This document shows, piece after piece, positions 16,959-64,000 of a DNA stretch of 64,000 bases (positions are counted from its first letter, which is position 1; every line of letters starts with the position of its first letter). Below the pieces are notes generated by a model, which ran no database searches, was not told the origin of the DNA, and saw only the letters and a program-made list of their open reading frames with translations. The stretch is from Candidatus Woesearchaeota archaeon. Lineage in GTDB: Archaea > Nanobdellota > Nanobdellia > Woesearchaeales > GW2011-AR4. Position numbers and translations under genes: made by a program. The stretch lies in NCBI GenBank assembly GCA_016180235.1, contig JACPBQ010000004.1, positions 175,674 to 239,673 of the forward strand, written 5' to 3'.

Positions 16959-17217
16959 TTTTATACCTCCAATTTTATTTTTAACTATAATTTTCAAATT
17001 GTAATTTGACATAGAGATTAATTCATTTATAAACATACTTTTTTAGCCTGAAAATCGGAGGTTTATAGGAAAGTTTAATGCTTTACAAAGCTTCATCCAT
17101 TCTTTTTATCGGAAAATAAGCTCATTTAGGGCTTTAAATCAAAAAAGTGGGTTAATTTTATTTTTTGAACTGACAAGATTATAAAAATTTAAATATTTGG
17201 CATGTTTTTTTGGAGTC

Positions 17218-20003: not shown

Positions 20004-20067
20004 TTTTAGAGGCTTTTATAGTTTTTAGGTTATTATGGTTTTTCTAATGTTATTGCTTATGATGGCA

Positions 20068-20535: not shown

Positions 20536-20537
20536 TT

Positions 20538-49362: not shown

Positions 49363-50103
49363 ATGAAGCTTACTCTTGCAGAGCCAAAATATCTAAAGGA
49401 GAGCATATCTATAATTTCCGACCTTGTCAATGAGGCAAGGTTCAAGGTCAACAAGGAAGGCATAGAATTAGTTGCCATGGACCCTGCAAATGTAGCCATG
49501 GTGATATTCAAGCTTCTCAGCAGCACCTTTACAGAATATGATGTCAAAAAGGATGTTGAGATTGCCATTAACTTAAGCAATTTAAAGCAGATAATGAGAA
49601 GGGCCAAGCCGAATGACATGCTTACCTTGGAATTGGACCCTGACAATAAGCTGAAGATACAGCTGAAAGGTGACAATGTAAGGACTTTTAACCTGCCCAT
49701 AATAGAGCTTGATGAAAAAGAGCAAAAAATACCAGAGTTAAACTTTGCTGTCAGCATAAAGATCCCTTCTGCTGTCTTGAACGAGGCTGTCGAGGATGTT
49801 GATGTTGTTGCTGAGTCAGTTGCATTTATTGCAGAGCCAAAGAAGTTCACAATTTATGCTGAAGGGGACCTAAGCCAGGCAAAGATAGAGATAAAGGAAG
49901 GAGAGAATGTAAAGATAAAGGCTGATGAGAAGGCAAAGGCAAAATACAGCGTTGAATACCTAAAGAAGATGATAAGCGGCAGCAAGATAGCGGATGACGT
50001 TTCAATTTACTTCAATAATGACTACCCATTAAAGCTTGAATATAAGACAGTCGATAAGGTGATGCTGAGCTTCATCCTTGCCCCTAGGGTAGAGAACGAC
50101 TGA
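49363..50103 (+). CDS. pcn: DNA polymerase sliding clamp (PCNA)
   Basis: 246 aa with a two-domain repeat. Typical LVNEARFKVNKEGIELVAMDPANVAMV. Confidence 0.9.
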   Translation: MKLTLAEPKYLKESISIISDLVNEARFKVNKEGIELVAMDPANVAMVIFKLLSSTFTEYDVKKDVEIAINLSNLKQIMRRAKPNDMLTLELDPDNKLKIQLKGDNVRTFNLPIIELDEKEQKIPELNFAVSIKIPSAVLNEAVEDVDVVAESVAFIAEPKKFTIYAEGDLSQAKIEIKEGENVKIKADEKAKAKYSVEYLKKMISGSKIADDVSIYFNNDYPLKLEYKTVDKVMLSFILAPRVEND

Positions 50104-50141: not shown

Positions 50142-50627
50142 ATGAATGAAGCAATTTCTTTCCTGAAAGAATGGTTCATAAGATTTCTCCAGAACAGGGA
50201 TTTAGTCAGGAGGAATATAGTAAGCATCGACAGCAATGAAGGACCTGAGCTTAAGGTAAATTACAGGGATAAGGCTGTCAATTTTTCGATCGTGCCTGAT
50301 TTAGACGGAAGCATTTTTGAAAAAGCATGCAATAAAGAGGATTCTGGATTTGTTATCCTAAATAACGATCAAAACCTGAAATTTGTGCATATCAACTGGA
50401 AAAAGCTGGCTGAAAACAAATCAATGGTGCTGTATTTCATAAATCCATTTTCCAATACAGACAAAGCGTGGATACTTTATCCCGGTGTGCATGATAAGAT
50501 ATGCGACAAAAGCTCTTTGGAAACGGGCCTTAAAGCAATGGCAGAGATGGTAGAACCAATAAATTATGAAAAAGTCGCAGAAAGGCTCACACCAAGAAAA
50601 CAAGCATCTGCCCAACAAAGCCGCTGA
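50142..50627 (+). CDS. Hypothetical protein
   Basis: 161-aa ORF with no motif recognised. Its 3' end overlaps the convergent gene 50587..51180. Confidence 0.45.
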   Translation: MNEAISFLKEWFIRFLQNRDLVRRNIVSIDSNEGPELKVNYRDKAVNFSIVPDLDGSIFEKACNKEDSGFVILNNDQNLKFVHINWKKLAENKSMVLYFINPFSNTDKAWILYPGVHDKICDKSSLETGLKAMAEMVEPINYEKVAERLTPRKQASAQQSR

Positions 50628-51180
50628 CAACCGGCACTATCAGGTTATCATCCAGCTCGTCAACCATTGTTTCTGTTATTGTCGCGACAAACGCCATTAT
50701 AATCAGTATGTATATGTTTATTGCGAAGAGAAGGCTTATCAAGACTGCCACTATAAGGTTTGTGACAAGCTCGGACGCAAAGCCTACAACGGTCTTGTTC
50801 TTGAATAAGATGGCTGTCCCGTATTTTTTCCCCGCGATCGCTGCTGCCATATCCCCAAAGGTTGTCATTAACAAGGCTGCGAGCGCGATTGCAGTGTCAA
50901 ATACCGCAAATGCGATTATTGTTGAGCAAAGGAAGAAGATAACGCCATAAACCCTGTATTGCTCCTTAGGCCTTATGAACTGGTGGAAAAAAGGCAGCTT
51001 GAAATTTAGATCTAATCTCAGGTATTCAAGTATGAGGAAGATTAGAAGCAAACCAACCAAGAAAAGAAGCGCTGCCTGCTGGCCTGCCTGGTTCTTTATT
51101 GTGAAGAAAAGGACAAGAACTATCAAGATTATTATGTGGATTATTTTTCTGCCTATCTCGCTAAAGAAACCCAATGGCAT
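50587..51180 (-). CDS. Polyprenol kinase / CTP-transferase family membrane protein (paralogue of 32746..33339)
   Basis: TFGDMAAAIAGKKYGT...KNKTVVGFAS motif; polytopic. Confidence 0.5.
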   Translation of the reverse strand: MPLGFFSEIGRKIIHIIILIVLVLFFTIKNQAGQQAALLFLVGLLLIFLILEYLRLDLNFKLPFFHQFIRPKEQYRVYGVIFFLCSTIIAFAVFDTAIALAALLMTTFGDMAAAIAGKKYGTAILFKNKTVVGFASELVTNLIVAVLISLLFAINIYILIIMAFVATITETMVDELDDNLIVPVVSGFVGQMLVFLV

Positions 51181-51326: not shown

Positions 51327-51827
51327 ATGAATTCAATAGACAAATTCAAGGACGAAAAAGGCATAATTAAGAGAGAAAACATCAAGAAAGTGATACCTTA
51401 CGAAGACCCTTTTCTTATGATTGACAGGGTATTAAGCCTTGATAAAAAAAATATTATAGCGGAGAAGGATGTAAAGGCCGATGAATATTATTTCAATGGC
51501 CATTTTAAAGGCTTTCCGATAATGCCCGGAGCATTGATTGTTGAAGGGCTTGGCCAGGCAGCTACACTGCTGATAAGATATAACATACCTGACCATGAAA
51601 ACAAGGATGTCCTGGCCTACAAGATAAGAAATGCCAAATTTTTCAGGCCGACTTTTCCGGGCCATACTTTGAGGTTTGAGGCAAGGCTTGTTTTTAAGTT
51701 CAAGATGGCGTGGTTCGTAAACGGCATTGTGTACAGGGATGAGAAGATAGTGTCAAAGGTTAAGATGGTCTTGGCTGTTGTTGACAGGGAAAAATTCAGG
51801 GGAAAATATTCGGGTAAAAAGGCATAA
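51327..51827 (+). CDS. fabZ: FabZ-like 3-hydroxyacyl-thioester dehydratase (hotdog fold)
   Basis: IPYEDPFLMIDRVLSL...YYFNGHFKGFPIMPGALIVEGLGQAA matches PHRxPFLLVDRV...FFxGHFPxxPxxPGVLxxEAxAQ. Confidence 0.8.
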   Translation: MNSIDKFKDEKGIIKRENIKKVIPYEDPFLMIDRVLSLDKKNIIAEKDVKADEYYFNGHFKGFPIMPGALIVEGLGQAATLLIRYNIPDHENKDVLAYKIRNAKFFRPTFPGHTLRFEARLVFKFKMAWFVNGIVYRDEKIVSKVKMVLAVVDREKFRGKYSGKKA

Positions 51828-51828
51828 A

Positions 51829-52778
51829 ATGAAAAGATATGTCAAAGGAGCCGGAATGACGAAATTCGGGGTGCTGGATAAGAACAGCCAGGAATTGTGC
51901 TACGAAGCTATAACGGAAGCATTGGAAGATGCGAACATGTCCCTTAGAGAAATAGATGAGATAGTCATTTCCAAAGGAGAATCTATTTATGACGGAGAAA
52001 GGCAAAGGCTTTTTCCCGGCGTGCTGAGCAGCATACTGCAGGACGAAAATATTCCAATGATAAGGGTCACGGCTGCCTGCAGCGGCGGAGGGGGAGCATT
52101 CTGGAATGCTGTGCATTCTGAAGCCAACAATGTTCTTGTTGTAGGCGTAGAGAAGCTTACTTCTGCCCTAACCAAGTACGTGACTGATGATTTCATGATG
52201 GCTTCTGAAAGAGTATACGAGCAGGCTGAAGGGCTAAATTTTCCGGCGCAGAATGCGCTTGTTGCGCAGCAATATATGTTGAGGTATGGTGCAGATTCCA
52301 GTGACCTTGGGCTGGTTGCGCTAAAGAACCATGATAATGCCTTCAATAATCCAAAGGCAAGGTTCTTCGGGAAGCGCAATAATAAGCAATGACAAAAGCA
52401 GCATTGAAATTGCTGCTTCATCCCTGTATGCGAGCAGGCTCCCGACTTTTGAGAGCGATGACATGACCAGCTGGGAAGCTACAGTTTTTGCCTCACAGGC
52501 TGCATATAAGGAAGCAAAGATGAATCCAGAAGACATAAACTTTGCCGAGCTGCATGACGCTTTTACGCCTGTTGAGCTTATGAGCTATGAAGACCTTGGA
52601 TTCTGCAAAAAAGGAAAGGGAAAGGATATGATAAGGAAAGGCATTACCAATATCAACGGAAAGCTGCCGGTAAATGCTTCCGGAGGCCTGAAAGCATAAT
52701 AAGATAGGGCTGGCACATAACGTAGGAGGTGCTGGAAGCACAGTTACAGTGCATATTCTAAAGAATATCGGAGGCTGA
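51829..52778 (+). pseudogene. Thiolase-like (SCP-x / archaeal acetoacetyl-CoA thiolase type) gene, disrupted
   Basis: Reads in three frames: 51829-52392 (stop after FFGKRNNKQ), 52331-52699 (..VNASGGLKA stop), 52701-52778 (KIGLAHNVGGAGSTVTVHILK). Relative to its paralogue it lacks ~75 nt (IENSPIIASPLRLFDCSISVNGAAA) and the GHPxGATG..QLRGEAGKRQV segment. Confidence 0.65.
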
Positions 52779-52779
52779 A

Positions 52780-54252
52780 ATGATCATTAGATGGATCTGC
52801 GAGAAAGACAGGAAGAAATGGATATATCCTGTTGAAAAGTGCATATACTGCAAGGGCCCTGTCAAAAAGATTATCAGCAGGGAAGCAAAAATAATTGGCA
52901 TGACAAAAGTAAATGTTCCTTCTCCATTGCATCCTATTGTGCCGTATAATGTCGTGCTTCTCCAGGATGAGCATGGGAACAGGATGCCAAAAAAAACCAT
53001 GAAAGATTATAAGATAGGCGATACTTACAGCATTAAAAAGCCCAAAAGCAAAAATGCAGTCATAGTAACAAAGATAAAATACGATCTCAGGGAAGCACTT
53101 AAAGAATCGCTCGAGCTTATTGGATATTCTGGCTTAAAGGAAGGGGACAAAGTCCTTATCAAGCCAAGCATCATAGAGCCTGCGTACCATTATCAGGCTG
53201 TAGATACCAGCCCAAAGCTCATGGATGCTTTGCTTGGTATTCTAAAGGAAAAAGGAATTACCGATGTTGTTGTTGCAGAACAGTCGTGGCCCGGGAATGG
53301 TACTATAGCATCTGCAGAAAAAGCAGGCATAACAGAAGCATGCAACAAATATGGATGTAAAATTCTTGACCTGAAGAACTCGGAATATACTGAAAAAGAA
53401 ACGGACGGGATGAAGTTCAATATTGGCAATGAAGTTTTTGAAAGGAAAGTGATAAATGTCCCGGTGCTAAAGACAAATTCCCAAATTCTGGTTTCCGGGG
53501 CCATGGAAAACATGATCAGGGTCACTGACAGCAAAACGCAGGAGATGATGTACTCTAATGATATAGAAAAGACCCTGCCAAAGCTGATTAAAGCCCTTCC
53601 GGAATTTTTAACAATAGGGGATGGCACAATAGGAATGCATGCGCAAGGGCCAACTTCGCTTGGAGACCCGGCTTTCCTAAATATGCTCCTCATAAGCAAT
53701 GATGCTGTGGCTTTGGATGCTGTATTTGCCGAGATTGGCATGCTGCCAAAGCCGGAATATGTAAAGGAAGCAGATTCTATAGGGGCAGGGGAAGGAATTG
53801 TAAAGAATATCGAGGTTGTTGGAGAAGACCTTGAGGCTGTGAAGCTCAACCTTAAGCCTGCTTCGAAAGAAGCTACCGGCCATCCGAGAATCAAGCTGAT
53901 AGACGGGAAGTCGAGCCCTGCGATTTTTAATGAGGCTTTGGGTGTCAGCTCAAAGCTTATAGGGCTTTCAGGCTACCAGATGCACCTGGCCATAGGCAAA
54001 TTCATAGAAAAAGGAATGACTGCTGAGAAGGAAAGGATTGTCGCTTACGGGAAGGATGCGATAGAAAAGATGAGGGAGCTTGGAGTCAAAACAGCTGCTG
54101 AAATTCCGGAAGACATGGAGAGCATGGAAAAAATTGTGCTGATAAAGAGCATACTTGAGGACCAGAAAAAAGAGACCATCAATGCTGCTGACAGGATAAA
54201 GTCAAAGATTGCAAGTTTTGGGATGAAATTGAAAAAAAACTTTTCAAAATGA
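52780..54252 (+). CDS. DUF35 (Zn-ribbon + OB fold) fused to a DUF362 domain
   Basis: N-terminus CEKDRKKWIYPVEKCIYCKG...PYNVVLLQDEHGNRM (DUF35). VLIKPSI...DTSPKLMDALLGILKEKG...INVPVLKTNSQILVSGAMEN (DUF362). Confidence 0.65.
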   Translation: MIIRWICEKDRKKWIYPVEKCIYCKGPVKKIISREAKIIGMTKVNVPSPLHPIVPYNVVLLQDEHGNRMPKKTMKDYKIGDTYSIKKPKSKNAVIVTKIKYDLREALKESLELIGYSGLKEGDKVLIKPSIIEPAYHYQAVDTSPKLMDALLGILKEKGITDVVVAEQSWPGNGTIASAEKAGITEACNKYGCKILDLKNSEYTEKETDGMKFNIGNEVFERKVINVPVLKTNSQILVSGAMENMIRVTDSKTQEMMYSNDIEKTLPKLIKALPEFLTIGDGTIGMHAQGPTSLGDPAFLNMLLISNDAVALDAVFAEIGMLPKPEYVKEADSIGAGEGIVKNIEVVGEDLEAVKLNLKPASKEATGHPRIKLIDGKSSPAIFNEALGVSSKLIGLSGYQMHLAIGKFIEKGMTAEKERIVAYGKDAIEKMRELGVKTAAEIPEDMESMEKIVLIKSILEDQKKETINAADRIKSKIASFGMKLKKNFSK

Positions 54253-55318
54253 AAACTTACATCAAGGGAGCAGGAATGACAAAATTCGATGTAGAAAGGA
54301 GAGGCTCTTTTGAAAGGATTTTGGAATGCACCAATGAGGCGCTTGAAAGCGCAGACATGAATTTTGATGATATAGATGTCATATTTTCCTCGAGCTCGGA
54401 AGGCGGAAGAAACGAGGAAAGGCAGAAGCACCAGGGGCCGATGCTGAGCAGCCTATTCAGGAAAAACATACCGATACTCAATGTCAGGGCCGGCTGCGCG
54501 GGCGGCGGAGTGGCATTCTGGAATGCGATAAACCATCTTCATTCCTCTGATGCAAAAAACATACTTATAGCGGGCTATGACAATGTCGTCTCTTCAAACA
54601 ATGATATACTGACAGATGAGATACTGATGGGCGGCGAGCGCCTTTATGAGCAGACAGAAGGCCTGATATTTCCGGCGCAGAATGCGCTTGTTGCGCAGCA
54701 ATACATGTTGAGGTATGGTGCAGATTCCAGTGACCTTGGGCTGGTTGCGCTAAAGAACCATGATAATGCCTTCAATAATCCAAAGGCAAGGTTCTTCGGG
54801 AAGATTGAGAATTCTCCGATCATAGCATCCCCTTTGAGGCTTTTTGACTGCAGCATCTCTGTAAACGGCGCTGCTGCCGCAATAATAAGCAAGAATAAAA
54901 GCGACATTGAGGTGGCAGGCTATGGCATGGTAACAACTAATCTGTCTGCCATCGAAAGAGAGGACATGACTTCAATGGAAGCTACTATCAAGGCTTCAGA
55001 TATAGCTTACAGCATGGCAGGAATAAATCCATCTAATGTCGATATAGCAGAGCTGCATGACGCTTTTACGCCATTGGAGCTTGTTTCTTATGAAGACCTG
55101 GGATTCTGCAAAAAAGGAAAGGGAAAGGATATGATAAGGAAAGGCATTACCAATATCAACGGAAAGCTGCCGGTAAATGCTTCCGGAGGCCTGAAAGCAA
55201 GCAGATGAGGAAGGAAGCTGGAAAAAGGCAGGTTGATAATACAGATGTTGCTCTTGCACAGAATATCGGCGGCGTAGGCACCATGGCTGCAGTGCATATA
55301 CTAAAGAAAGCAAAGTAA
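54249..55318 (+). pseudogene. Thiolase-like paralogue with a frame-breaking internal deletion near the C-terminus
   Basis: The main frame stops at 55208 right after VNASGGLKASR. The expected continuation QMRKEAGKRQVDNTDVALAQNIGGVGTMAAVHILKKAK is in another frame (55202-55318). The GHPxGATG segment between them is absent. Confidence 0.6.
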
Positions 55319-56077
55319 TCATTTTTTCTTCTTCATAAAACTGTCAAGCAGTTCCTTATTCTCCATGCTCCTTGAGCATTTTATGTATGATTCTGCTTCA
55401 AAATTATCAAGAAGATCTTTTTTGAATGAAGAATTTATGGATTTTTTTGTCAGGTATAAAGCATGCACGGGCTTTTCTGCTATTTTTTTAAGCAATGAAC
55501 CCATAAATTCCTTAATTTTTTTCTCTGAAACCAAAAAGTCTGCAAGGCCCCACTCAACAGCTTTTTTGCCTCCTATGGATTCTCCGGTGAAAAACATATA
55601 CTTTGCCCTTCCGGAACCGATAAGCCTCGGAAGCCTTTTTGTTGCGCCAAGAGGGGCTACTGTTCCCAGAGATACTTCAGGGTGCAGGAATTTTGCATTT
55701 TCAGTGGCTATCCTGATGTCGCATGCCATTGCCAATTCATTACCGCCGCCTACCGCATAGCCATCGATAAGAGCTATGAAAACCTGCGGCATGCTCTCCA
55801 TCCTCGAAAAGGTTTTTTGCACAAAAGAAATTTGCGCTTTTGCCTCCTGCTTTGAGAGGGTCCCGATCTCCTTCTCCCATTCTATATCCCCGCCGGAAGA
55901 AAAAGCCTTTCCGTTGCCGGCAACCACCACAACTCTTACCCTGCTTTTGGCTATCTTATCAAGAATATTGCTGAGCTCTTTGATTGTGTGGAAGTCAAAA
56001 GAATTGAGCTTTTTTGGGTTATTAAATGCTATATGCCCAACAAGACCATCTCCCCTGTACAAGATTTTTTTGTCCAT
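55319..56077 (-). CDS. Enoyl-CoA hydratase/isomerase (crotonase) family
   Basis: VVVAGNGKAFSSGGDI, DGYAVGGGNELAMACDIRIA. Confidence 0.85.
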   Translation of the reverse strand: MDKKILYRGDGLVGHIAFNNPKKLNSFDFHTIKELSNILDKIAKSRVRVVVVAGNGKAFSSGGDIEWEKEIGTLSKQEAKAQISFVQKTFSRMESMPQVFIALIDGYAVGGGNELAMACDIRIATENAKFLHPEVSLGTVAPLGATKRLPRLIGSGRAKYMFFTGESIGGKKAVEWGLADFLVSEKKIKEFMGSLLKKIAEKPVHALYLTKKSINSSFKKDLLDNFEAESYIKCSRSMENKELLDSFMKKKK

Positions 56078-56078
56078 T

Positions 56079-57488
56079 TTATTTCGGGTTAAGTATATGT
56101 ATCGCTTTTCCCATAGTCGCTTCTGCAGCTTCCATAAGGCTCTCGCTCAATGTAGGATGCGGATGTATTGTTAGTGACAAATCTTCCAATGTCGCTTTCA
56201 TTTTTATTGCAAGCGATGCCTCGCTTATAAGATCAGATGCTTCTGCCCCGACTATTTCCACTCCAAGTATCCTGCCATCTTTTTCATCAGCTATCACCTT
56301 GACAAACCCTTCTGCCTCTGATTTTGTCATGGCCCTGCTTGACACGGAAAAAGGGAACTTTCCGACTTTTGCCTTTATGCCGTTAGATTCTGCATCTTTC
56401 TCTGACATTCCGACTGTAGCGATTTCCGGATCGGTGAATATGACAGAAGGGACAACAGAGTCCTCGTATCTTTCTTTGCTGCCCGCTATTATCTCTGCTA
56501 CAAATTTTCCCTGGTATGATGCCTTGTGGGCCAGCATGGGGCCAATGGAAACATCGCCTATCGCGTAAATATTTTTGTCATCAGTCATCAGGCTTTCGTT
56601 TACATTTATGAAACCTTGATTGTCCAATTTTACTTTTGTTTTTTCCAGGCCGAGATTTTTTGTGTTTGGATAGCGGCCTACAGCGACAAGAATCTTGTCA
56701 GCTTCTATTGAAAAAGTCCCTTTCTCTTTCGAGCTTGCGATTATTTTGCTGTTTTCTGATTTATCTGCTTTTGTGCTTAAATGTATTTTAACGCCTAATT
56801 TCTCCAATTTTTTATGAACAACATCCACAACGCTTTTGTCGAGTCCCGGAAGCAGCTGGCCTGCCATTTCTATCACTGAAACCCTGCTGCCAAGCTTTGC
56901 ATATACTGTCCCGAGCTCCAACCCTATATAGCCTCCTCCTATCACAACAAGATCTTTTGGGGCTTCTTTGAGATAAAGAGCTTCTGTGGAACTGATTATT
57001 GTTTCATTATCAAATTTTATATTTGGAAGCTCTATTGGTTTAGAGCCTGTCGCTATTATAGCTTTTTCAAAATCAATATAAGAAACATCATTCTCGTTAT
57101 TTATTCTTAATCTGCTTGAAGATTCAAATGCTGCAGTTCCATTTAGGACCCCGACATTATTGCCTTTGCATAATGTCTCAATTCCCCTGTTGAGTTTTTC
57201 TATTATGCCGTCTTTCCATCGCTGCATCTGCTGGAAGTCCATAGAAACATTCTCAGCTTTTATCCCCATGCCAGAGGCATTCTTTATCCTGCTCAGGAAA
57301 TCGGAAGCGTAAATCATTGCTTTGCTGGGTATGCAGCCATAGTTGAGACATATGCCTCCAAGCCTGTCATCTTTTTCAATCAGGACAGTCTTTTTTCCAA
57401 GCTGGGCTGACCTTATAGCGGCAACATAGCCGCCAGGGCCTGCGCCTATTACGACAACATCGGCTTTTACATTGTTATTCTTTCCCAT
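56079..57488 (-). CDS. lpdA: Dihydrolipoyl (lipoamide) dehydrogenase
   Basis: VVVIGAGPGGYVAA, redox disulfide GGICLNYGCIPSKA, second Rossmann VVIGGGYIGLE, C-terminal HPHPTLSE. Confidence 0.9.
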   Translation of the reverse strand: MGKNNNVKADVVVIGAGPGGYVAAIRSAQLGKKTVLIEKDDRLGGICLNYGCIPSKAMIYASDFLSRIKNASGMGIKAENVSMDFQQMQRWKDGIIEKLNRGIETLCKGNNVGVLNGTAAFESSSRLRINNENDVSYIDFEKAIIATGSKPIELPNIKFDNETIISSTEALYLKEAPKDLVVIGGGYIGLELGTVYAKLGSRVSVIEMAGQLLPGLDKSVVDVVHKKLEKLGVKIHLSTKADKSENSKIIASSKEKGTFSIEADKILVAVGRYPNTKNLGLEKTKVKLDNQGFINVNESLMTDDKNIYAIGDVSIGPMLAHKASYQGKFVAEIIAGSKERYEDSVVPSVIFTDPEIATVGMSEKDAESNGIKAKVGKFPFSVSSRAMTKSEAEGFVKVIADEKDGRILGVEIVGAEASDLISEASLAIKMKATLEDLSLTIHPHPTLSESLMEAAEATMGKAIHILNPK

Positions 57489-57639
57489 TTTTGCTGACAA
57501 TCCCGAGTTATTAAAGAATATTAATAAATCTAACGCTTTATTGGCAAAATAGGATACTGTAAAGTTAAGTGTGTTTTGTTCTATATTTGTGAGCTAAGGG
57601 ACTGTGCTTTGTCACTTAATCTTACTTAACCTCCTAGTG

Positions 57640-57737
57640 TCTCTGAGGGTTGCGAAGCCGTGGGAAATGCTTTGCATTTCCGTGGCACCGGACTTCGTCC
57701 GAGTGCAATCCCTCCACTAGTGTGCGGGTACACACAA
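57640..57737. repeat. GC-rich multi-hairpin block including a copy of the GTGYGC-loop-GCRCACAA family
   Basis: GGAAATGC-TTT-GCATTTCC, CGGAC-TTC-GTCCG, GTGTG-CGGGTA-CACAC. CCACTAGTGTGCGGGTACACACAA resembles 36-61 and 81-101. GAGGGTTGC pairs with GCAA(T)CCCTC as an enclosing helix. Confidence 0.55.
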
Positions 57738-57785
57738 ATAGAAAGTTTAAAAAAGGTACTTATTTTGCCCTTGTGATTGGATAAT

Positions 57786-58769
57786 ATGGCTGATACAATG
57801 AGTATGCAAGAACCAAAATCCTGGAAGCCTGACCGGCCGGTCTCAAGGGGCGCGACGGAATTCCACAATGCAGTTATAGACGCTACGTGGAACCACGAAT
57901 GCCTTGACTACCTAATATCTTTAGCAGAGCCAAACATCAAGGAAAATGATATCGTGGTTGATTTTGGCGCAGGAACAGGAACTTCAGCAGCCAGAATCCT
58001 TGAAAAAGTAAAAAAAAGGATAAGATTATGGCTTGTCGACAATTCACCGGCATGGCTGGGAAAAGCCTATGAGACTTTCAGAAAAACGCCGAATGTCAGT
58101 TTTTTTGTCCTGGAGAAAAAAAACGGGGATAATGCCACGCTTTCTGAAACAGTAGGAAAAGAGACTGTGGACAATGTCCTTTCTGCCAATACTGTGCATC
58201 TAATCCCAAACCTGAAAGCAACATTCAAGGGGATTGCCGAAGCATTGAAGCCGAAGGGTATTTTTGTTTTTAACAGCACGAATGTGACCAGAGAAGGCAG
58301 GCCTGACGGGGCCTTGATGCTTGATTCAACTGTCTACAGGGTGCATGACATTGCAATAGACATCATAAGGACCGATCCCAAATACAAAGAATACAGGAAA
58401 GACCTTGACAATAAGATAGTGGAGGAAAACGAGCAAAGGAGCTTCATATTTCCGCAGCCTAAATCAATCAATGATTACCTGAAAACCCTGAAGGAGGCCG
58501 GCTTTGAGTCTATCAAGACCAATTACAAATGCATAAGGGTAAAGTACAATGAATACATCAAGTTCCTGAGAGTAAAGAGGCTGCAGGCCGGAATGCTGCC
58601 TGAAGTTGGGGGAAAGAAGCCAAATCCACAGGAGGAAAAGGACAGAGACGAGCTGATAACGATGGCTTCCTTAAAGCTGTTCAAGGAGCTGGAAGAGACC
58701 AATCCTCTTGCAGACAGCGAGGCCTGGCAATGCGAATGGGCTTATGTTTCAGCTGTGAAACCAGGTTAA
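57786..58769 (+). CDS. Class I SAM-dependent methyltransferase
   Basis: Motif I VVDFGAGTGTSAARIL; post-I LVDNS. Confidence 0.7.
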   Translation: MADTMSMQEPKSWKPDRPVSRGATEFHNAVIDATWNHECLDYLISLAEPNIKENDIVVDFGAGTGTSAARILEKVKKRIRLWLVDNSPAWLGKAYETFRKTPNVSFFVLEKKNGDNATLSETVGKETVDNVLSANTVHLIPNLKATFKGIAEALKPKGIFVFNSTNVTREGRPDGALMLDSTVYRVHDIAIDIIRTDPKYKEYRKDLDNKIVEENEQRSFIFPQPKSINDYLKTLKEAGFESIKTNYKCIRVKYNEYIKFLRVKRLQAGMLPEVGGKKPNPQEEKDRDELITMASLKLFKELEETNPLADSEAWQCEWAYVSAVKPG

Positions 58770-58770
58770 A

Positions 58771-59505
58771 ATGCTAAAAGGAAAAACTGCGCTTATAACA
58801 GGGGCATCAAGGGGCATAGGAGAAGCCATTGCCGTTGAATTTGCGAAAAATAATGCTGATGTCATCATCAATTACTACAGCGACAGGGATGAAGCGCAAA
58901 AGGTTGTTGATAAAATAAAAAAATATGGTGTCAGAGCAATAGCTGTGCAGGCTGATGTCAGCAAGATTGATGAAGTAAAGAAAATGGCTGATGAGATACA
59001 GAAAGAATTCAGGAAAGTGGATATCCTTGTCAATAATGCCGGAATAGCCAAGGACAGGACATTAAAGAACATGACCATGGATGAATGGCATGCCGTGATA
59101 AACACAAACCTCAACGGGATTTTTTACGTGACTAAATCAATATTGCCGTTGATCCCCGAAGGCGGCAGGATAATAAGCATATCCTCGATTGTCGGCCAAT
59201 ACGGAAATTTCGGGCAGACCAATTATGCGGCTGCTAAAGCTGGAATAATAGGATTCACGAAGTCGCTTGCAAAGGAGCTTGGAAAGAAAAAGATAACTGT
59301 GAATGCGATAGCTCCTGGATTTGTCAGGACTGCAATCACGAAAGACATACCTTTCTTCAGGAGAAAAATGCTGAACCACATGATTGCGCTGAAAGAAGAG
59401 GCCGAGCCGGAAGACATAGCTGATGTTGTCGTGTTTTTGGCTTCTGCAAAATCAAGATATATAACCGGCGCAGTCATCAATGTTGACGGCGGCCTAGCTA
59501 TCTAA
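58771..59505 (+). CDS. fabG: 3-oxoacyl-(ACP/CoA) reductase, FabG-type SDR
   Basis: ALITGASRGIGEAIA, NNAGI, YAAAKAG, ITVNAIAPGF. Confidence 0.85.
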   Translation: MLKGKTALITGASRGIGEAIAVEFAKNNADVIINYYSDRDEAQKVVDKIKKYGVRAIAVQADVSKIDEVKKMADEIQKEFRKVDILVNNAGIAKDRTLKNMTMDEWHAVINTNLNGIFYVTKSILPLIPEGGRIISISSIVGQYGNFGQTNYAAAKAGIIGFTKSLAKELGKKKITVNAIAPGFVRTAITKDIPFFRRKMLNHMIALKEEAEPEDIADVVVFLASAKSRYITGAVINVDGGLAI

Positions 59506-59620
59506 AAAGTATAGATTTATAAATAAGCCTTCTTTCCTCAGAGGGAGTTATCTTAAGGTCCTGAGAGCGATTCTTGGGATTTTTTGGATGGCTTAAAAAT
59601 TTGAGAGGTATGAATTAGAT

Positions 59621-59992
59621 ATGGACAGAAATAGAGGATTTAGGGAAAAATTTGCTCCAGTCAAGGTTGGAGACGAGATAGATGTAAAGATAGAGGCTGT
59701 AGGAGAGAAAGGGGACGGCATAGCAAAGAAAGAAGGCTTTGTTTTGTTTGTGCCTAACACAAAAGAAGGCCAGGAAGTAAGGATAAAAGTTACGAGAGTG
59801 CTGAGGAATGTAGGATTTGCCGAGGTTGTTGGAGAGGCAGGAAGCAGCTCGGAACAATCTGAGGAATCTGATTCTGAAGAACGGGAAGAAGGAACTTCTG
59901 ACATGCCTGCAGAGAATAAATCTGAAGAATCCGAAAGCCAGGAAGAAGATACGGAAGATTTTGGCGAAGAGATGGAAGAAGACAAGCAATAA
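59621..59992 (+). CDS. TRAM-domain protein with an acidic tail
   Basis: PVKVGDEIDVKIEAVGEKGDGIAKKEGFVLFVPNTKEGQEVRIKVTRV. Confidence 0.8.
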   Translation: MDRNRGFREKFAPVKVGDEIDVKIEAVGEKGDGIAKKEGFVLFVPNTKEGQEVRIKVTRVLRNVGFAEVVGEAGSSSEQSEESDSEEREEGTSDMPAENKSEESESQEEDTEDFGEEMEEDKQ

Positions 59993-60049
59993 GATAGTTC
60001 TTTTTTTCTTATCATTAATTTTAAATAGTGGTATCCATCGATTTTTATT

Positions 60050-60592
60050 ATGAGGCTTTTTGTAGCTTTTGATGTCCCTCCTGAAATAAAAGAATATATG
60101 GCAGCCATACAGCAGAGGATAGGGAATGACCTGGCTGAAATAAGATGGGTAAATAAAGAGCAGATGCACCTTACGTTGAAATTTTTAGGTGAAGTGCAGC
60201 CCAATAATCTAGAGCTAATAAAAAAAGAATTAAGAGGTGTAAAATTCAAATCTTTTCAATGCTACTTGAGCTCTATAGGGGTTTTTCCGGATGAAGGCCA
60301 TATAAGGATTGTATGGGTTGGCTTAGAGCCTGAAGACAAGATAATAGAACTGCAGCAGCAGGTTGATGATAAGCTCAAAAAACTGTTTACGAAAGAAAAG
60401 GACTTCAAGGCCCATCTTACACTGGGAAGGGTGAAATATGCTGAAAACAGGGAAGGATTTGCGAATAAATTAAAAAAAATCAATGTTGAGAAGAAAAAAT
60501 TTAATGTCGAAAGCTTCAAGCTGATGAAAAGCACACTGGAAATGGAAGGGCCGGTTTATGAAGCGGTTGAGGAATTCAAGGCATCAGTATAA
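60050..60592 (+). CDS. thpR: RNA 2',3'-cyclic phosphodiesterase (2H family, LigT/ThpR)
   Basis: Two H-x-T-x motifs (MHLTLKFLGE and AHLTLGRV); MRLFVAFDVP start. Confidence 0.85.
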   Translation: MRLFVAFDVPPEIKEYMAAIQQRIGNDLAEIRWVNKEQMHLTLKFLGEVQPNNLELIKKELRGVKFKSFQCYLSSIGVFPDEGHIRIVWVGLEPEDKIIELQQQVDDKLKKLFTKEKDFKAHLTLGRVKYAENREGFANKLKKINVEKKKFNVESFKLMKSTLEMEGPVYEAVEEFKASV

Positions 60593-60689
60593 AAAAATTG
60601 ATGTTGTCGGATTTTAAATCCCGTTCGGGGAGATCAGAAATTTTCAAAACTCAGCGAAACCTTTTTAAATAAAACTTATTTCTCATGGC

Positions 60690-60739
60690 TTATTACCGAC
60701 GTGCGCTTCTTTAGCGCACAATACTGCATGAGGTAATAA
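60690..60739 (+). repeat. Nested hairpin upstream of rps2, containing a member of the GTGYGC-loop-GCRCACAA family
   Basis: Outer stem TTATTACC (60690-97) / GGTAATAA (60732-39); inner GTGCGC-TTCTTTA-GCGCAC(AA) at 60701-60721. Confidence 0.5.
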
Positions 60740-60786
60740 AAACTGCAGTTCAGCATTCTGAGCTGTTTTAAGTTTAGGAGGATATT

Positions 60787-61386
60787 ATGACAGAAGAGAA
60801 GTTTTTGGTTCCTACGGATGAGTACCTTAAGTCAGGTATACACATAGGCACAAAGTTCAAGACAAGGTACATGGAGAAATTCATATACAAGACAAGGCCT
60901 GACGGGCTGTCCGTCTTAAATCTGCAGAAGATTGACGAAAGGATAGGCATAGCTGCAAGATTCCTTGCAACATACAATCCTGAAGACATACTGGTTGTTG
61001 GAAGAAGGGAGAGCTCATGGAAGCCAATAACAAAGTTCGGCAAGGTCATTGGAGCAAGAGTGTATGCAGGAAGATATCCTCCCGGAATACTTACAAATCC
61101 GGGCCTGGAGAATTACATAGAGGTAAAAGTTTTGCTGGCCGTGGACATATGGCCTGACAGGAATGCTGTGATTGACTGCCTAAAGATAGGAATACCAATA
61201 ATCGCGATATGCGACACAAACAACCAGTCAAACAACATAGACCTTGTAGTTCCGGGCAATAACAAGGGCAAGAAGAGCCTTGGGCTGTTTTTCTGGATAC
61301 TTTCAAAGGAATACCTCAAGGCAAGAGGCATAATAAAAAGCGACAAGGATTTCAAGGAAAGGCTAGAGGACTTTACGGAAGAATAA
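60787..61386 (+). CDS. rps2: 30S ribosomal protein uS2 (archaeal type)
   Basis: LLKSGIHIGTKFKTRYMEKFIY..RPDGLSVLNLQKIDERI, PIIAICDTNN. GGAGG Shine-Dalgarno sequence. Confidence 0.9.
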   Translation: MTEEKFLVPTDEYLKSGIHIGTKFKTRYMEKFIYKTRPDGLSVLNLQKIDERIGIAARFLATYNPEDILVVGRRESSWKPITKFGKVIGARVYAGRYPPGILTNPGLENYIEVKVLLAVDIWPDRNAVIDCLKIGIPIIAICDTNNQSNNIDLVVPGNNKGKKSLGLFFWILSKEYLKARGIIKSDKDFKERLEDFTEE

Positions 61387-61395
61387 ACCTTTTTT

Positions 61396-62385
61396 TCATA
61401 TTATTTCCAGGAGCTGGCTTATGGCTTTTTTTAGATTCATGCCTTCATAAAGAACCTTGTATGCATGCGCTATCAATGGTGTTTCAATTCCTTTGCTCCT
61501 GCAAAGCATGTAGATGGCTTTGGTGTTTTTAACGCCTTCTGCTACCATCCCGTGCATTTCTTTTTTTATCTGCTCCATGCTTTTACCTTTCGCAAGCATT
61601 TCCCCGACAAACCGGTTCCTGCTGTAATGACTGTAGCAGGTTGCCACAAGGTCGCCAACCCCCGCAAGGCCGTAGCAGGTTTCCCTTTTTGCCCCGAATT
61701 TTCTCGCTATTACACTCATCTCTGAAAGGCCCAATGTCAGGATGCTTGCTTTTGCATTATCCCCAAGCTTTAAGCCATCACAAACTCCTATTGCTATAGC
61801 AACTATATTCTTTACAGCGCCGCATATTTCAACCCCGATAATATCGTCATGGGGATAAGTCTTGAAATAAGGCATATAAAAAAACCTTGAGACCATATGT
61901 GCTGCATCGCTGTTTGCTGATGCTATTACCGTCGCTGTCGGCAGCCTGTTAGAAACTTCTTCGGCGTGATTCGGGCCTGACAATACAACTATTTTTTGGT
62001 TCCTGAGCTCTTCCCCAAGGACCTGGGACATAAGTTTCCCGGAATTTTCCTCTATACCCTTTGTTACATGCACAATAACAGCATCTTTTTTTATGAATTT
62101 TGAAAATGACTTTGCAATGGCCCTCAAAAAACCCGATGGCACTGCAAAAACAACCATGTCAGAATTTTCAGCTGCATCTTTGATTGAATGCGTTGCGATT
62201 ATGCTAGCGGGTATTTTGATGTTTTTTAGGTATTGCCTGTTTTCCCTCTTTTTATTTATCTCATCTGCAAGCTCCTTCCTTCTGGTCCACAAAGAAACCT
62301 TATAGCCTTTTTCCCCGAGCAGTATTGCCAGTGAAGTGCCCCAGCTTCCTGCTCCAATGACACAAATCCTGCTTATTTTTTTCAT
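61396..62385 (-). CDS. gpsA: NAD(P)H-dependent sn-glycerol-3-phosphate dehydrogenase (bacterial GpsA type)
   Basis: ICVIGAGSWGTSLAILL, VVFAVPS, GAVKNIVAIA, GDLVATC. Confidence 0.9.
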   Translation of the reverse strand: MKKISRICVIGAGSWGTSLAILLGEKGYKVSLWTRRKELADEINKKRENRQYLKNIKIPASIIATHSIKDAAENSDMVVFAVPSGFLRAIAKSFSKFIKKDAVIVHVTKGIEENSGKLMSQVLGEELRNQKIVVLSGPNHAEEVSNRLPTATVIASANSDAAHMVSRFFYMPYFKTYPHDDIIGVEICGAVKNIVAIAIGVCDGLKLGDNAKASILTLGLSEMSVIARKFGAKRETCYGLAGVGDLVATCYSHYSRNRFVGEMLAKGKSMEQIKKEMHGMVAEGVKNTKAIYMLCRSKGIETPLIAHAYKVLYEGMNLKKAISQLLEII

Positions 62386-62386
62386 T

Positions 62387-63028
62387 TTAATAATTGTATT
62401 CTTGCCCGGATAATCTTGCTATCTCCTTCATTATTTTTGTTGTTATCTCCTTTAATATTTTTTTGTTTATAGGCTTATTATAATATTTGCCGAAATACAT
62501 GGGCTTTCCGAAACTTAAATCTGCTTTTTTCAGCCTAGGTATCTTTTTTCCTTTTGGCAATATCTCAAATGCGCCCTTTATTCCAAGCGGGACAACAGGG
62601 ACTCTGGCCCATAAAGCCAATCTTGACACTCCAGTCTTCCCTTTCTGTATTTTTCCTGTCAGGCTCCTTGTGCCTTCAGGATAGATGACTATGACTGCGC
62701 CTTTCCTAAGGTATGAGACTGCTGCTTTTATGGCCTCTTCGCCTTTTTCCCGGTCAATAGGTATATAGGTAGTGTACTTTTCCCAAAGGCTGTGCCAGCT
62801 GCTCTGTGCAATGCTTTGAAAATGCTCTTTTTTTGCTATGAAATGCAGCTTTTTGCTTAGATGCGGGATAATAACTGCTCCTATTAGGAAATGCTCCATA
62901 TAGCTGCAGTGATTCGGGGCAAGTATGAAAGGTCTATTGGTGGGCAGATTCTCAATGCCATTAACTTTTCTTATCCATAATTTCAAAACAGGAGAGAAAA
63001 TATACCTTGCTACCTGAAACGGCCTCAT
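62387..63028 (-). CDS. plsC: Lysophospholipid (1-acyl-sn-glycerol-3-phosphate) acyltransferase family
   Basis: APNHCSYMEH (HX4D-like, with E in place of D), IYPEGTRS, VPVVPLGI. Confidence 0.75.
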   Translation of the reverse strand: MRPFQVARYIFSPVLKLWIRKVNGIENLPTNRPFILAPNHCSYMEHFLIGAVIIPHLSKKLHFIAKKEHFQSIAQSSWHSLWEKYTTYIPIDREKGEEAIKAAVSYLRKGAVIVIYPEGTRSLTGKIQKGKTGVSRLALWARVPVVPLGIKGAFEILPKGKKIPRLKKADLSFGKPMYFGKYYNKPINKKILKEITTKIMKEIARLSGQEYNY

Positions 63029-63663
63029 GGGTTGTACCTCTGGCCGGATAATTTCGCTATTTCCTTCATAAGCTTTTCTGTCATTGACTCAAGGCCTTTT
63101 CTTGTGGCTTTTGCCTTAGCAAAAAACATCGGCTTTCCGAAACTCAGCCTGATCGCTTTTTTTATTTTTGGGAGGGATTTTCCTGAAGGCATAAGCTGGT
63201 AAGCTCCTTGAATGCCTACAGGTATTATCGGAGCTCCTGAAAGCAGTGCCAGCCTTACAGCGCCGGTCTTGCCTTTCCTTATCTTTCCATCACGGCTTCT
63301 TCCACCTTCAGGATATATTCCTATGACTTCATTGTTATCAAGAGCTTTGAGGGCTTCGCTGAATGCTTTTTCAGGAGATTTCCTGTCAATTATTATTACA
63401 CTGCTTTCCCTGGTTTCCAGCAACAAGATTCCGAGCTTAAAAATCCTGTCCTGCAATAATTCTTTCTTGGCTATGAACCTTATGTACCTTGATTTTTTTA
63501 CTATCAATGATGAATACATCGCGGCAATGTCCATATAGCTTGAATGGTTTGCTGCAAGTATAAAGCCTTTTTCAGAGGGTATGTTCTGGATGCCACTTAT
63601 TTGCCTGAGAAAAAGCCCGCAGGCTATAAAAGAAAACAACCTGTTTAAAAAATATTTAAGCAT
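63025..63663 (-). CDS. plsC: Lysophospholipid acyltransferase family, tandem paralogue
   Basis: AANHSSYMDI (HX4D), IYPEGGRS, APIIPVGI. Overlaps the downstream paralogue by 4 nt. Confidence 0.8.
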   Translation of the reverse strand: MLKYFLNRLFSFIACGLFLRQISGIQNIPSEKGFILAANHSSYMDIAAMYSSLIVKKSRYIRFIAKKELLQDRIFKLGILLLETRESSVIIIDRKSPEKAFSEALKALDNNEVIGIYPEGGRSRDGKIRKGKTGAVRLALLSGAPIIPVGIQGAYQLMPSGKSLPKIKKAIRLSFGKPMFFAKAKATRKGLESMTEKLMKEIAKLSGQRYNP

Positions 63664-63708: not shown

Positions 63709-64000
63709 TTAGATGTCCTTTAATCCTGAGACTTCAACATAGAAGCTTGCTTCCTTAGATGCGGAATCATTTGATTTTTCCCAGTCATAGATATTAGAAT
63801 GTGATGTGCCTAATATTTTTGCTATTTCCCTATGTTTTAAACCCTGCCTTAGCATATCTAATGCTTTTTGCTTAAATTCTCCTGAATATCGTCTCAAACC
63901 TTTACGCTTGTAAGATTCCAAAGCCTTCTTAAGTGAATAGACTTTCCTGTCGATTACAAAACCAATGCTATTGTCAAATAATTTTAAAGAATTATAATTT
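63709..64000 (-). CDS. HTH-domain protein (transposase/resolvase-type N-terminal HTH); N-terminus runs off the window
   Basis: GLKHREIAKILGTSHSNIYDWEK. The reading frame stays open upstream of the track start (63921) to the window edge. Confidence 0.45.
   Translation of the reverse strand, partial: NYNSLKLFDNSIGFVIDRKVYSLKKALESYKRKGLRRYSGEFKQKALDMLRQGLKHREIAKILGTSHSNIYDWEKSNDSASKEASFYVEVSGLKDI

Follow-up and report, generated by a model that had tools for sequence, protein, structure and literature searches.

We analysed a 64-kb stretch of a Candidatus Woesearchaeota archaeon genome (contig JACPBQ010000004.1; the window, numbered from its first letter) and found that positions 51327-63663 carry a cluster of genes with predicted roles in fatty-acyl chain building and sn-glycerol-3-phosphate (G3P) acylation, interleaved with archaeal housekeeping genes. 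The reading that we favour, with restrained confidence, is that this cluster builds fatty-acyl-CoA without acyl carrier protein (ACP) and loads it onto G3P, that it was inherited vertically, and that the breaks in its two thiolase genes are most likely assembly errors. It builds on what the data show: which genes are present, their motifs and predicted folds, their synteny, and a codon usage native to the genome. We scanned about 65 open reading frames (ORFs) across the whole window with Pfam and the cluster proteins with NCBIfam, and compared the cluster with related loci and contigs (labelled L004-L091). The ORF list, Pfam and NCBIfam bear out every enzyme that an earlier, sequence-only reading had named (FabZ, thiolases, crotonase, FabG, Lpd, GpsA and two PlsC), each at the position listed below, and Pfam likewise bears out their interleaving with PCNA, TRAM, ThpR and uS2. 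That reading had missed a methyltransferase directly upstream of FabG, which is a conserved member of the cluster. The features are as follows.

49363-50103: PCNA, archaeal housekeeping neighbour
50587-51180, minus strand: CTP_transf_1-like polytopic membrane protein, 197 aa (PF01148, 23.0 bits against a cut-off of 24)
51327-51827, plus strand: FabZ-like (3R)-hydroxyacyl dehydratase, hot-dog fold (PF07977, 79 bits)
51829-52778, plus strand: thiolase paralogue 1, archaeal / SCP-x type (tblastn pieces in three frames)
52276-52374 = 54705-54803: exact 99-nt match of thiolase 1 to thiolase 2, ending at a breakpoint
52598-52696 = 55101-55199: exact 99-nt match of thiolase 1 to thiolase 2, ending at a breakpoint in both copies
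52780-54252, plus strand: DUF35::DUF362 fusion protein, 490 aa (PF04015, 112 bits; Foldseek for the N terminus)
54249-55318, plus strand: thiolase paralogue 2 (two frames)
55319-56077, minus strand: crotonase-family enoyl-CoA hydratase (ECH; PF00378, 170 bits)
56079-57500, minus strand: dihydrolipoamide dehydrogenase-type flavoprotein disulfide reductase (Lpd; Pyr_redox_2 and Pyr_redox_dim)
57786-58769, plus strand: class I S-adenosylmethionine-dependent methyltransferase with cap domain (Pfam methyltransferase domains)
58771-59505, plus strand: FabG-type 3-oxoacyl reductase of the short-chain dehydrogenase/reductase (SDR) family (NF009466, YxxxK motif)
59621-59992, plus strand: TRAM-domain protein (Pfam; 15 of 18 related loci)
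60050-60592, plus strand: ThpR / LigT 2H-phosphoesterase (Pfam; 15 of 18 related loci)
60787-61386, plus strand: ribosomal protein uS2, convergent with GpsA (Pfam; 14 of 18 related loci)
61396-62385, minus strand: GpsA, bacterial-type NAD(P)H-dependent sn-glycerol-3-phosphate dehydrogenase (NF000942, 404 bits against a cut-off of 257)
62387-63028, minus strand: PlsC-family acyltransferase, GpsA-proximal (PF01553, 82.7 bits)
63025-63663, minus strand: PlsC-family acyltransferase, distal (PF01553, 93.7 bits)

Conserved gene order and native composition

We examined synteny in four GTDB genomes, three long contigs found via the fusion protein, and 80 metagenome loci retrieved using an alignment of that protein. 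The shared order opens with an upstream module (carboxyltransferase, BCCP, BioY, x, BirA, biotin carboxylase) and proceeds through FabZ, thiolase 1 and DUF35::DUF362. An optional ketoreductase (KR), thiolase 2, and optionally a family III CoA-transferase, or crotonase and/or Lpd, come next, followed by the methyltransferase and KR, which are separate or fused depending on the locus. TRAM, ThpR, uS2, GpsA, PlsC and PlsC complete the order, with the last three genes on the opposite strand. Of the 18 non-redundant loci that reach 9 kb or more past the fusion gene on its downstream side, 17 have the KR, 15 each the methyltransferase, TRAM and ThpR, 14 each uS2 and GpsA, and 13 PlsC. Loci with at least 8 kb of upstream sequence carried FabZ in 14 of 17 cases, biotin carboxylase in 13, BirA in 13 and the carboxyltransferase in 9. 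Lpd and ECH are accessory (5/18 and 1/18 related loci, respectively). The relatives' biotin carboxylase exceeds the accC cut-off, and their carboxyltransferase is of the MmdA/PccB type. Such co-arrangement is far beyond chance. One relative (L010) has the window's exact order, crotonase and Lpd included, with every gene intact; two others (L019, L026) share its upstream order of PCNA, CTP_transf_1-like protein and FabZ, with no carboxylase module beside FabZ.

The rival view that the region is bacterial DNA, wrongly joined or binned into an archaeal contig, has some features in its favour. FabG, FabZ, GpsA and PlsC are typical bacterial families, and GpsA scores higher against PDB entries 3k96 (236 bits) and 1z82 (224 bits), which we take to be the Coxiella and Thermotoga enzymes, than against 1txg (138 bits), presumably that of Archaeoglobus. 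However, uS2, TRAM and ThpR are interleaved in identical order on dozens of contigs from different studies and assemblers. Codon usage and GC content are indistinguishable from those of housekeeping genes: relative synonymous codon usage of the cluster correlates with theirs at 0.957, compared with 0.963 for a housekeeping-versus-housekeeping control, and GC is 0.422 compared with 0.419. The GpsA-uS2 junction also occurs in three independent Logan assemblies, where contigs with an identical GpsA are only 1.1-1.6 kb long. Runs with an identical GpsA are SRR12113420, SRR12113424 and SRR12113431. Because synteny, codon usage, GC and this junction agree, we consider a mis-join excluded, with a probability close to nil; the sequence-only reading had countered it with the interleaved archaeal genes, and that argument is upheld.

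The recurrence of this order across relatives indicates that the housekeeping genes between the lipid genes belong to a stable synteny of long standing, and vertical inheritance within Woesearchaeota (DPANN; GTDB Nanoarchaeota) is the best explanation for the neighbourhood. The nearest GpsA proteins in species-representative genomes come from Candidatus Woesearchaeota metagenome-assembled genomes (MAGs; 77% and 70% identity). Farther matches are at 57% identity, on a contig that bears the label uncultured Methanosarcinales, and at 54%, in a Nanoarchaeia MAG. Among the matches listed, every homologue with a name, for the fusion protein and the methyltransferase alike, is from Woesearchaeota or Nanoarchaeota. 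A contig labelled "uncultured Methanosarcinales" (L006, CAYNCK010000083.1) carries PlsC-PlsC-GpsA beside uS2 (69% identical) together with a methyltransferase::KR fusion; given its Woesearchaeal synteny, it is probably mis-binned.

Breaks in the thiolase pair

The sequence-only reading described both thiolases as broken, which tblastn pieces and alignment to L091 show to be true of the sequence as deposited. Thiolase 1 matches in three pieces (51829-52377, 52376-52696 and 52701-52778). The contig L091, which shares 89% of its nucleotides with the window and has an intact thiolase 3' end, shows by alignment that exactly 92 nt are missing from thiolase 1 at each of two places. The deletion after 52374 removes ~30 aa including SPLRLFDCS, and that after 52695 ~31 aa including the catalytic GHP; the Cys nucleophile is retained. 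In thiolase 2, a gap of 18 nt follows 54803 and keeps the frame, whereas ~52-53 nt are deleted after 55199 and the frame shifts there; the 16 aa lost include GHP. Neither deposited copy thus contains an uninterrupted ~375-aa gene with both Cys and GHP of the archaeal / SCP-x type (PRK06064). The L010 orthologues score 372 and 351 bits against the subfamily cut-off of 420.

The breakpoints abut two exact 99-nt matches between the paralogues; no other direct repeat in the window reaches 60 nt. Among the retrieved loci, comparable defects were found in only two. One is L004, where an identical segment is missing from the two thiolases and the two PlsC genes are damaged as well; its exact paralogue matches are of 100 nt (thiolases) and 99 nt (PlsC pair). 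The other is L008, with a split thiolase 1, a thiolase 2 that is short of 14 aa, and an exact match of 141 nt. All these matches end or start exactly at the breakpoints. The values 99 and 141 are standard k values of the de Bruijn assembler MEGAHIT, and 100 is one of IDBA-UD. About 35 other loci with both paralogues have exact matches of scattered length or none, never 99, 100 or 141 nt, and have no frameshift and no missing GHP motif. In a tblastn census of ~96 thiolase genes of this family, GHP was absent only from the window's two copies. Proteins that cluster with thiolase 1 at 90% identity or more are intact (376 and 377 aa). For the exact thiolase-2 product, a contig look-up found none, and a cluster look-up returned the source contig only.

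Why the two genes should share such stretches is suggested by the relatives. Identical paralogue tracts of 30-585 nt recur in the same two gene regions in many genomes, and within-genome identity despite divergence between orthologues points to ongoing gene conversion (concerted evolution). Tracts shared by thiolases 1 and 2 were seen in L010, L027, L030 (585 nt), L040, L043, L051, L057, L058 and L067 (393 nt). Judging by these sequences, conversion between the thiolases would suit a heteromeric enzyme.

Given the k-mer-length matches at the breakpoints, the intact relatives at ~90% identity and the concerted evolution, we consider it probable that the thiolase breaks are assembly artefacts at gene-conversion tracts. 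Two points count against this: read literally, the contig as deposited specifies thiolases that could not work, and simple contig-overlap models fail to reproduce losses of 92, 92, 53 and 18 nt. The sequence-only reading had taken the breaks as a sign that the synthesis arm is decaying while the acyltransferases are retained for scavenged fatty acids. In this form, the thiolases would be genuine recent pseudogenes, de novo synthesis would be lost, and GpsA/PlsC would be kept for host-scavenged fatty acids or lysolipids. The frameshifts and the missing GHP segment in both deposited copies would fit, as would a window without the carboxylase module that adjoins FabZ in most relatives, and the general view of DPANN archaea is that they rely on a host for lipids (PMC11868695, PMC7242380). 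Yet the other defective loci break at matches of 99, 100 and 141 nt like the window's own, and the window's thiolase fragments are still 70-77% identical to L010 with no further decay. The neighbouring genes for FabZ, fusion protein, methyltransferase and ketoreductase are full length, as is every other gene of the cluster, L019 and L026 also lack the upstream carboxylase and have intact thiolases, and Pfam finds in the window no acyl-CoA synthetase with which scavenged fatty acids might be activated. We therefore judge genuine pseudogenes to be unlikely, and a decaying synthesis arm is not borne out. There is a practical warning here: paralogues undergoing conversion can yield apparent pseudogenes in metagenome assemblies, with k-mer-length exact matches at their breakpoints, and calls of a "decaying pathway" in reduced genomes need to be checked against reads.

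A proposed route from chain building to acylated glycerol-3-phosphate

The protein encoded between the two thiolases had been called a DUF35 partner, a description that holds by fold but for only part of a larger protein. Pfam recognizes DUF362 alone (residues 125-317); residues 1-127 match no Pfam family at E<=1, the DUF35 models PF12172 and PF01796 included. NCBIfam returned nothing for the fusion protein, and its family profile found no match among PDB sequences. Only predicted structure was informative here. An AlphaFold2 model built from 43 homologues reached a mean predicted local distance difference test (pLDDT) score of 87.9, and Foldseek matched its N-terminal ~100 aa to DUF35 subunits of thiolase complexes, namely BbsA (7pyt, 7pxp), 6esq, PhlB (5m3k) and ChsH2 (6ok1), with probability 1.00 and target TM-scores of 0.42-0.50. 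The zinc ribbon is degenerate, with three Cys left that are not invariant. The remainder matches LarA homologues (9eia, E=7e-6; 7s91, 3e-5; 8ezf, 8e-5). DUF362 (PF04015) shares Pfam clan CL0471 with the LarA N-terminal domain and is without known function (PMC11770544). The predicted structure thus describes a DUF35-fold domain (degenerate zinc ribbon plus OB fold, of the thiolase-scaffold type) joined to a LarA-like DUF362 domain. Its family comprises at least 286 clusters at 90% identity, nearly all ~488 aa, and by its known homologues appears specific to the lineage.

The enzymes around the thiolases carry the residues expected of them. FabZ, whose best PDB sequence matches are bacterial FabZ proteins, has a hot-dog domain with catalytic His and Glu and the motif GHF...PGALIVEGLGQ, and aligns over 165/165 aa with the FabZ of L010. 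FabG scores 258 bits against NF009466 (cut-off 222) and 291.5 against TIGR01830 (cut-off 297.75), with the classical SDR Ser and YxxxK, here YAAAK. Both catalytic Glu motifs are present in the crotonase, which is 58% identical to the L010 ECH, and Lpd has CLNYGC (CxxxxC) and HPTLSE (HPxxxE). The methyltransferase has 352 homologue clusters, including ~570-aa fusions in which it lies N-terminal to an SDR reductase. Its AlphaFold2 model (pLDDT 94.2) gave 991 generic Foldseek matches at E<=0.001, with phosphoethanolamine N-methyltransferases, RebM and JHAMT on top, and its PDB sequence matches were weak (<=31 bits), the best being 6cca and 5mpt, which we take to be polyketide synthase (PKS) C-methyltransferase domains. 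Hints to its substrate thus conflict: sequence points weakly to PKS C-methyltransferases and predicted fold, as weakly, to phosphoethanolamine N-methyltransferases among many others. Relatives carry BioY and BirA and thus take up biotin from outside, which makes a BioC-like role unlikely.

At the glycerol end, GpsA matches PF01210 (197 bits), PF07479 (185 bits) and the bacterial C-terminal domain PF20618. Both PlsC genes are intact, exceed the PF01553 cut-off of 23 and have motifs I and III: NHCSYME and YPEGTRS in the proximal copy, NHSSYMD (HX4D) and YPEGGRS in the distal one. The distal copy matches 5kym (E=1e-19), presumably the Thermotoga maritima PlsC, a 1-acyl-sn-glycerol-3-phosphate acyltransferase. 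Both copies align to 5kym, from its residue 65 on, and at ~212 aa have no counterpart of its N-terminal region. The sequences support a genetic potential of the lineage to make and acylate G3P. To that extent, with GpsA and both PlsC genes intact in motif and synteny, the ester-lipid interpretation of the sequence-only reading stands; the decaying synthesis arm attached to it is not supported. Between uS2 and GpsA, three relatives carry an alpha/beta-hydrolase that the window does not have (L004 4550-5332, L005 4187-4966, L011 9845-10624); the L011 protein matches Hydrolase_4 and, weakly, a lipid-droplet-hydrolase model, and the L004 and L005 ORFs are assigned by size and position only. The L011-type protein may be a lipase or lysophospholipase.

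From these parts we infer substrates, complex formation, direction of flux and final lipid as follows. The first half of the cluster would build or elongate fatty-acyl-CoA without ACP. Two archaeal-type thiolase paralogues would carry out the Claisen condensation, presumably held by the DUF35 domain of the fusion protein as in the Methanothermococcus thiolase/HMGCS and Sulfolobus archaeal fatty acid synthesis (FAS) complexes. The FabG-like reductase would then act on 3-oxoacyl-CoA, and the FabZ-like dehydratase would remove water. A biotin-dependent acyl-CoA carboxylase upstream in most relatives suggests malonyl- or methylmalonyl-CoA as the extender. GpsA would convert dihydroxyacetone phosphate to G3P, and the two soluble-type PlsC proteins would acylate positions 1 and 2 from acyl-CoA to give phosphatidic acid, standing in for PlsB or PlsX/PlsY. 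As neither PlsB nor PlsX/PlsY is present, the simplest view is that the PlsC paralogues divide sn-1 and sn-2 acylation between them using acyl-CoA, a donor that would fit a chain-building system without ACP.

The set of thiolase, DUF35-type protein, FabG-like and FabZ-like enzymes agrees with the ACP-independent route that the sequence-only reading had raised. Its label of a bacterial-type fatty-acid gene set was overstated: FabG, FabZ, GpsA and PlsC are bacterial-like, but the condensing enzymes are archaeal-type thiolases and there is no ACP. Among the ~65 window ORFs, Pfam detected no ACP, ketoacyl-ACP synthase (KAS), FabD, FabI, PlsX/Y, glycerol-1-phosphate (G1P) dehydrogenase, geranylgeranylglyceryl phosphate synthase or CDP-alcohol transferase, in keeping with the absences of ACP, FabH/F, PlsX/Y and G1P dehydrogenase reported earlier. 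Searching by tblastn with E. coli and B. subtilis ACP also found no ACP, either in the window or across the 853 kb that the related loci span. The components that define bacterial type II FAS (ACP, transacylase, KAS and enoyl-ACP reductase) are thus missing from the window.

Several observations weigh against the ACP-independent route to acylated G3P. FabZ falls below both equivalog cut-offs (NF000582, 106.8 bits against 113; TIGR01750, 101.8 against 155). Motif I of the proximal PlsC is HX4E rather than HX4D, a D-to-E change shared by its L005 orthologue, and both PlsC proteins score below the cut-off of 102.95 for TIGR00530, the 1-acylglycerol-3-phosphate O-acyltransferase model (proximal 71.1, distal 83.4), so that the acceptor may be G3P, lysophosphatidic acid or another molecule. 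No enoyl reductase was assigned in the window or is conserved in the cluster core, Pfam found no acyl-CoA synthetase in the window, and no CdsA or head-group enzyme was firmly identified there. Using L010 proteins as tblastn queries, we found no carboxylase, BioY or BirA in the 64 kb; these may lie elsewhere in the genome. The ketothiolase tested in Sulfolobus, Saci_1114, did not use malonyl-CoA, and no decarboxylating ketothiolase was identified there (bioRxiv 10.1101/2024.07.05.601840), so a role for the carboxylase here is conjecture. Coleman 2019 (PMC6431249) doubted a membrane role for GpsA/PlsC.

Two of these gaps have candidates to fill them. One relative (L087, 6015-9142) carries an acyl-CoA dehydrogenase, EtfB and EtfA inside the cluster, between ketoreductase and PlsC, and by sequence these are a candidate Bcd/Etf-type enoyl-CoA reductase; another candidate is a 2,4-dienoyl-CoA-reductase-like SDR beside a MaoC dehydratase in some relatives. 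The CTP_transf_1-like protein at 50587-51180, which adjoins FabZ in the window, L019 and L026, lies at the border of what counts as CTP_transf_1 superfamily (CdsA / dolichol kinase) and may be a lipid cytidylyltransferase or kinase. It is 26% identical to a paralogue at 32746-33339 (minus strand), also of 197 aa, and both have an FGD...AG motif. With a sub-threshold PF01148 match and no NCBIfam or PDB sequence match, we did not assign it as CdsA or CarS, and its membership of the cluster is uncertain.

The same lack of a conserved enoyl reductase would also fit a chain-building half that makes, in place of the usual straight-chain fatty acids of membranes, a polyketide-like lipid (methyl-branched, hydroxy or polyunsaturated), anchored on G3P by PlsC, with the methyltransferase acting on the 3-oxoacyl intermediate. 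PKS and FAS modifying regions have a similar methyltransferase/ketoreductase domain order, and many genomes fuse the methyltransferase to the ketoreductase. Its best PDB matches, 6cca and 5mpt, point the same way, as do an ApeI-like model that relatives' FabZ homologues also match, the MmdA/PccB type of the carboxyltransferase, and a family III CoA-transferase in the slot after thiolase 2 (7/18 loci); alpha-methylacyl-CoA racemase is a member of that family. However, those PDB matches do not exceed 31 bits, the fold search was non-specific, with N-, O- and S-methyltransferases on top of its 991 matches, and enoyl reduction could come from the acyl-CoA dehydrogenase with EtfAB or the dienoyl-CoA-reductase-like SDR of relatives. 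We consider a polyketide-like product quite unlikely.

In L005, L009, L043, L045 and L070, a second module lies between the FabG-like gene and TRAM (for example, L009 14923-18593). Here a true archaeal hydroxymethylglutaryl-CoA (HMG-CoA) synthase is accompanied by a different thiolase, a DUF35 protein that stands alone, a MaoC dehydratase and an SDR similar to dienoyl-CoA reductase. The module looks like the archaeal FAS genes of Sulfolobus combined with the first steps of the mevalonate pathway.

The thiolase/DUF35 genes might instead supply acetoacetyl-CoA for mevalonate, or serve beta-oxidation, with no relation to GpsA/PlsC. Thiolase and DUF35 form the first part of the archaeal thiolase/HMGCS complex (6esq), a crotonase is present, and in some relatives a genuine archaeal HMG-CoA synthase, scoring 470 bits where the cut-off is 244, lies close by. 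But that synthase brings its own thiolase, ~30% identical to the pair's, and its own stand-alone DUF35 as a separate module, which argues that the window's thiolase pair is not a mevalonate-entry complex. The pair's conserved partners are biosynthetic (FabG, FabZ, carboxylase), Pfam found no acyl-CoA dehydrogenase in the window, and linkage to GpsA/PlsC is kept in 13-14/18 loci. Two surveys also report that Woesearchaeota use the methylerythritol phosphate (MEP) pathway (PMC8204110, PMC10936187). An isoprenoid or catabolic role is thus very improbable.

A bolder version of the ACP-independent route would have a large Woesearchaeota clade encode a complete, undescribed path from acetyl-CoA to diacyl-G3P, comprising carboxylase, heteromeric thiolase pair with DUF35::LarA-like scaffold, FabG/FabZ, methyltransferase, GpsA and PlsC. 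DUF362 would then supply a new activity, such as the missing enoyl reduction or an epimerisation, and the ketoreductase-fused methyltransferase would possibly add methyl branches. We regard this as doubtful; if true, Woesearchaeota would build rather than steal ester-linked G3P membrane lipids.

Elsewhere in the window and its relatives we noted several mobile elements. A 70-aa HTH_Tnp_1 transposase-type ORF lies just past the distal PlsC at the window edge (63709-63921, minus strand) and an IS200-like Y1 transposase at 18794-19255 (minus strand); in L026, a TnpB / Cas12f-like OrfB_IS605 gene (6928-8112, minus strand) is inserted between the CTP_transf_1-like gene and FabZ. The window also encodes a bacterial-type DNA gyrase subunit A of 818 aa with DNA_topoisoIV and six GyrA C-terminal repeats (37225-39681, minus strand). 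A riboflavin block at 19590-20915 (minus strand) has two genes of the 6,7-dimethyl-8-ribityllumazine (DMRL) synthase family, one of which is probably an archaeal riboflavin synthase, and a CTP-dependent riboflavin kinase. Large ORFs with no or marginal family matches lie at 4049-5656 (plus), 5730-8117 (plus), 15558-17036 (minus) and 41805-43577 (minus): the 535-aa and 492-aa products match no family, the 795-aa product has a sub-threshold RelA/SpoT match and the 590-aa product a lamin-tail domain.

Relation to published surveys and known systems

The split between ether-isoprenoid-G1P lipids of Archaea and ester-acyl-G3P lipids of Bacteria and Eukarya is a long-standing problem for early evolution and eukaryote origins. 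The lineage studied here already figures in it. Woesearchaeota are among the few archaeal lineages reported to have GpsA without G1P dehydrogenase (Yokobori 2016, PMC5059525), and GpsA in Woesearchaeota and PlsC in DPANN have been read as transfers from Bacteria (Coleman 2019, PMC6431249). "Bacterial fatty acid synthesis" genes, G3P dehydrogenase included, were noted near MEP genes in a 52-genome Woesearchaeota clade (Castelle 2021, PMC8204110), whose supplementary tables contain no searchable mention of these genes. FabG, FabI and FabZ were found in DPANN genomes from oxygen-deficient zones (Zhang 2024, PMC10936187). With reports from 2016 to 2024 that cover GpsA, PlsC and FabG/FabZ in Woesearchaeota, the phenomenon is known and this locus is a further member. 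In their available parts, these DPANN/Woesearchaeota surveys share with our analysis the lineage, the gene families and the hypothesis of bacterial-like lipids, but they give presence or absence only, without gene order, the thiolase pair, DUF35::DUF362 or the methyltransferase-reductase fusion. What is new, relative to the portions of the literature searched, is the cluster architecture and the fusion proteins. Together they make a compact set of ~ten genes, including the lineage-specific DUF35::DUF362 fusion, that can be expressed and tested.

Among characterized systems, the bacterial phosphatidic acid pathway shares with the window a GpsA above the curated cut-off, PlsC motifs I and III, and alignment to 5kym. 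The window differs in having no PlsB, PlsX or PlsY, two short tandem PlsC proteins, one of them with HX4E, and acyl-CoA as the presumed donor. With bacterial type II FAS it shares FabG-like and FabZ-like enzymes and, in relatives, biotin carboxylase and carboxyltransferase. Unlike that system, the window has no ACP, AcpS, FabD, KAS or FabI, and thiolases acting on CoA esters would condense instead. The DUF362 part of the fusion is alike in fold to LarA, of the nickel-pincer nucleotide enzymes (DUF2088), but there is no detectable sequence similarity between the fusion protein and any solved LarA, and related loci showed no larB, larC or larE gene within 10 kb of the cluster.

The thiolase/HMGCS/DUF35 complex of Methanothermococcus thermolithotrophicus (6esq) shares the thiolase family, with AcCoTHIOL_METTL among the best NCBIfam matches, and the DUF35 fold. 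In contrast to it, the window's thiolase pair comes without HMG-CoA synthase, its DUF35 carries an extra ~390 aa, and its neighbours are fatty-acyl rather than isoprenoid genes. The archaeal FAS of Sulfolobus acidocaldarius consists of a ketothiolase/DUF35 (Saci_1121/1120), an SDR ketoacyl-CoA reductase, a MaoC dehydratase and a separate MDR (medium-chain dehydrogenase/reductase) enoyl-CoA reductase (Schmerling et al., bioRxiv 10.1101/2024.07.05.601840); DPANN go unmentioned in that paper. Both systems would be CoA-based and free of ACP, with an archaeal-type thiolase and DUF35-fold partner, an SDR ketoreductase and a hot-dog (R)-dehydratase, which is MaoC in Sulfolobus and of the FabZ type in the window. 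The window has neither the MDR enoyl-CoA reductase nor MaoC, and some relatives have a separate MaoC/SDR module. What sets the Woesearchaeal cluster apart is a DUF35 fused to a LarA-like DUF362, two concertedly evolving thiolases, a conserved methyltransferase, an adjacent acyl-CoA carboxylase in relatives, and linkage to GpsA and PlsC.

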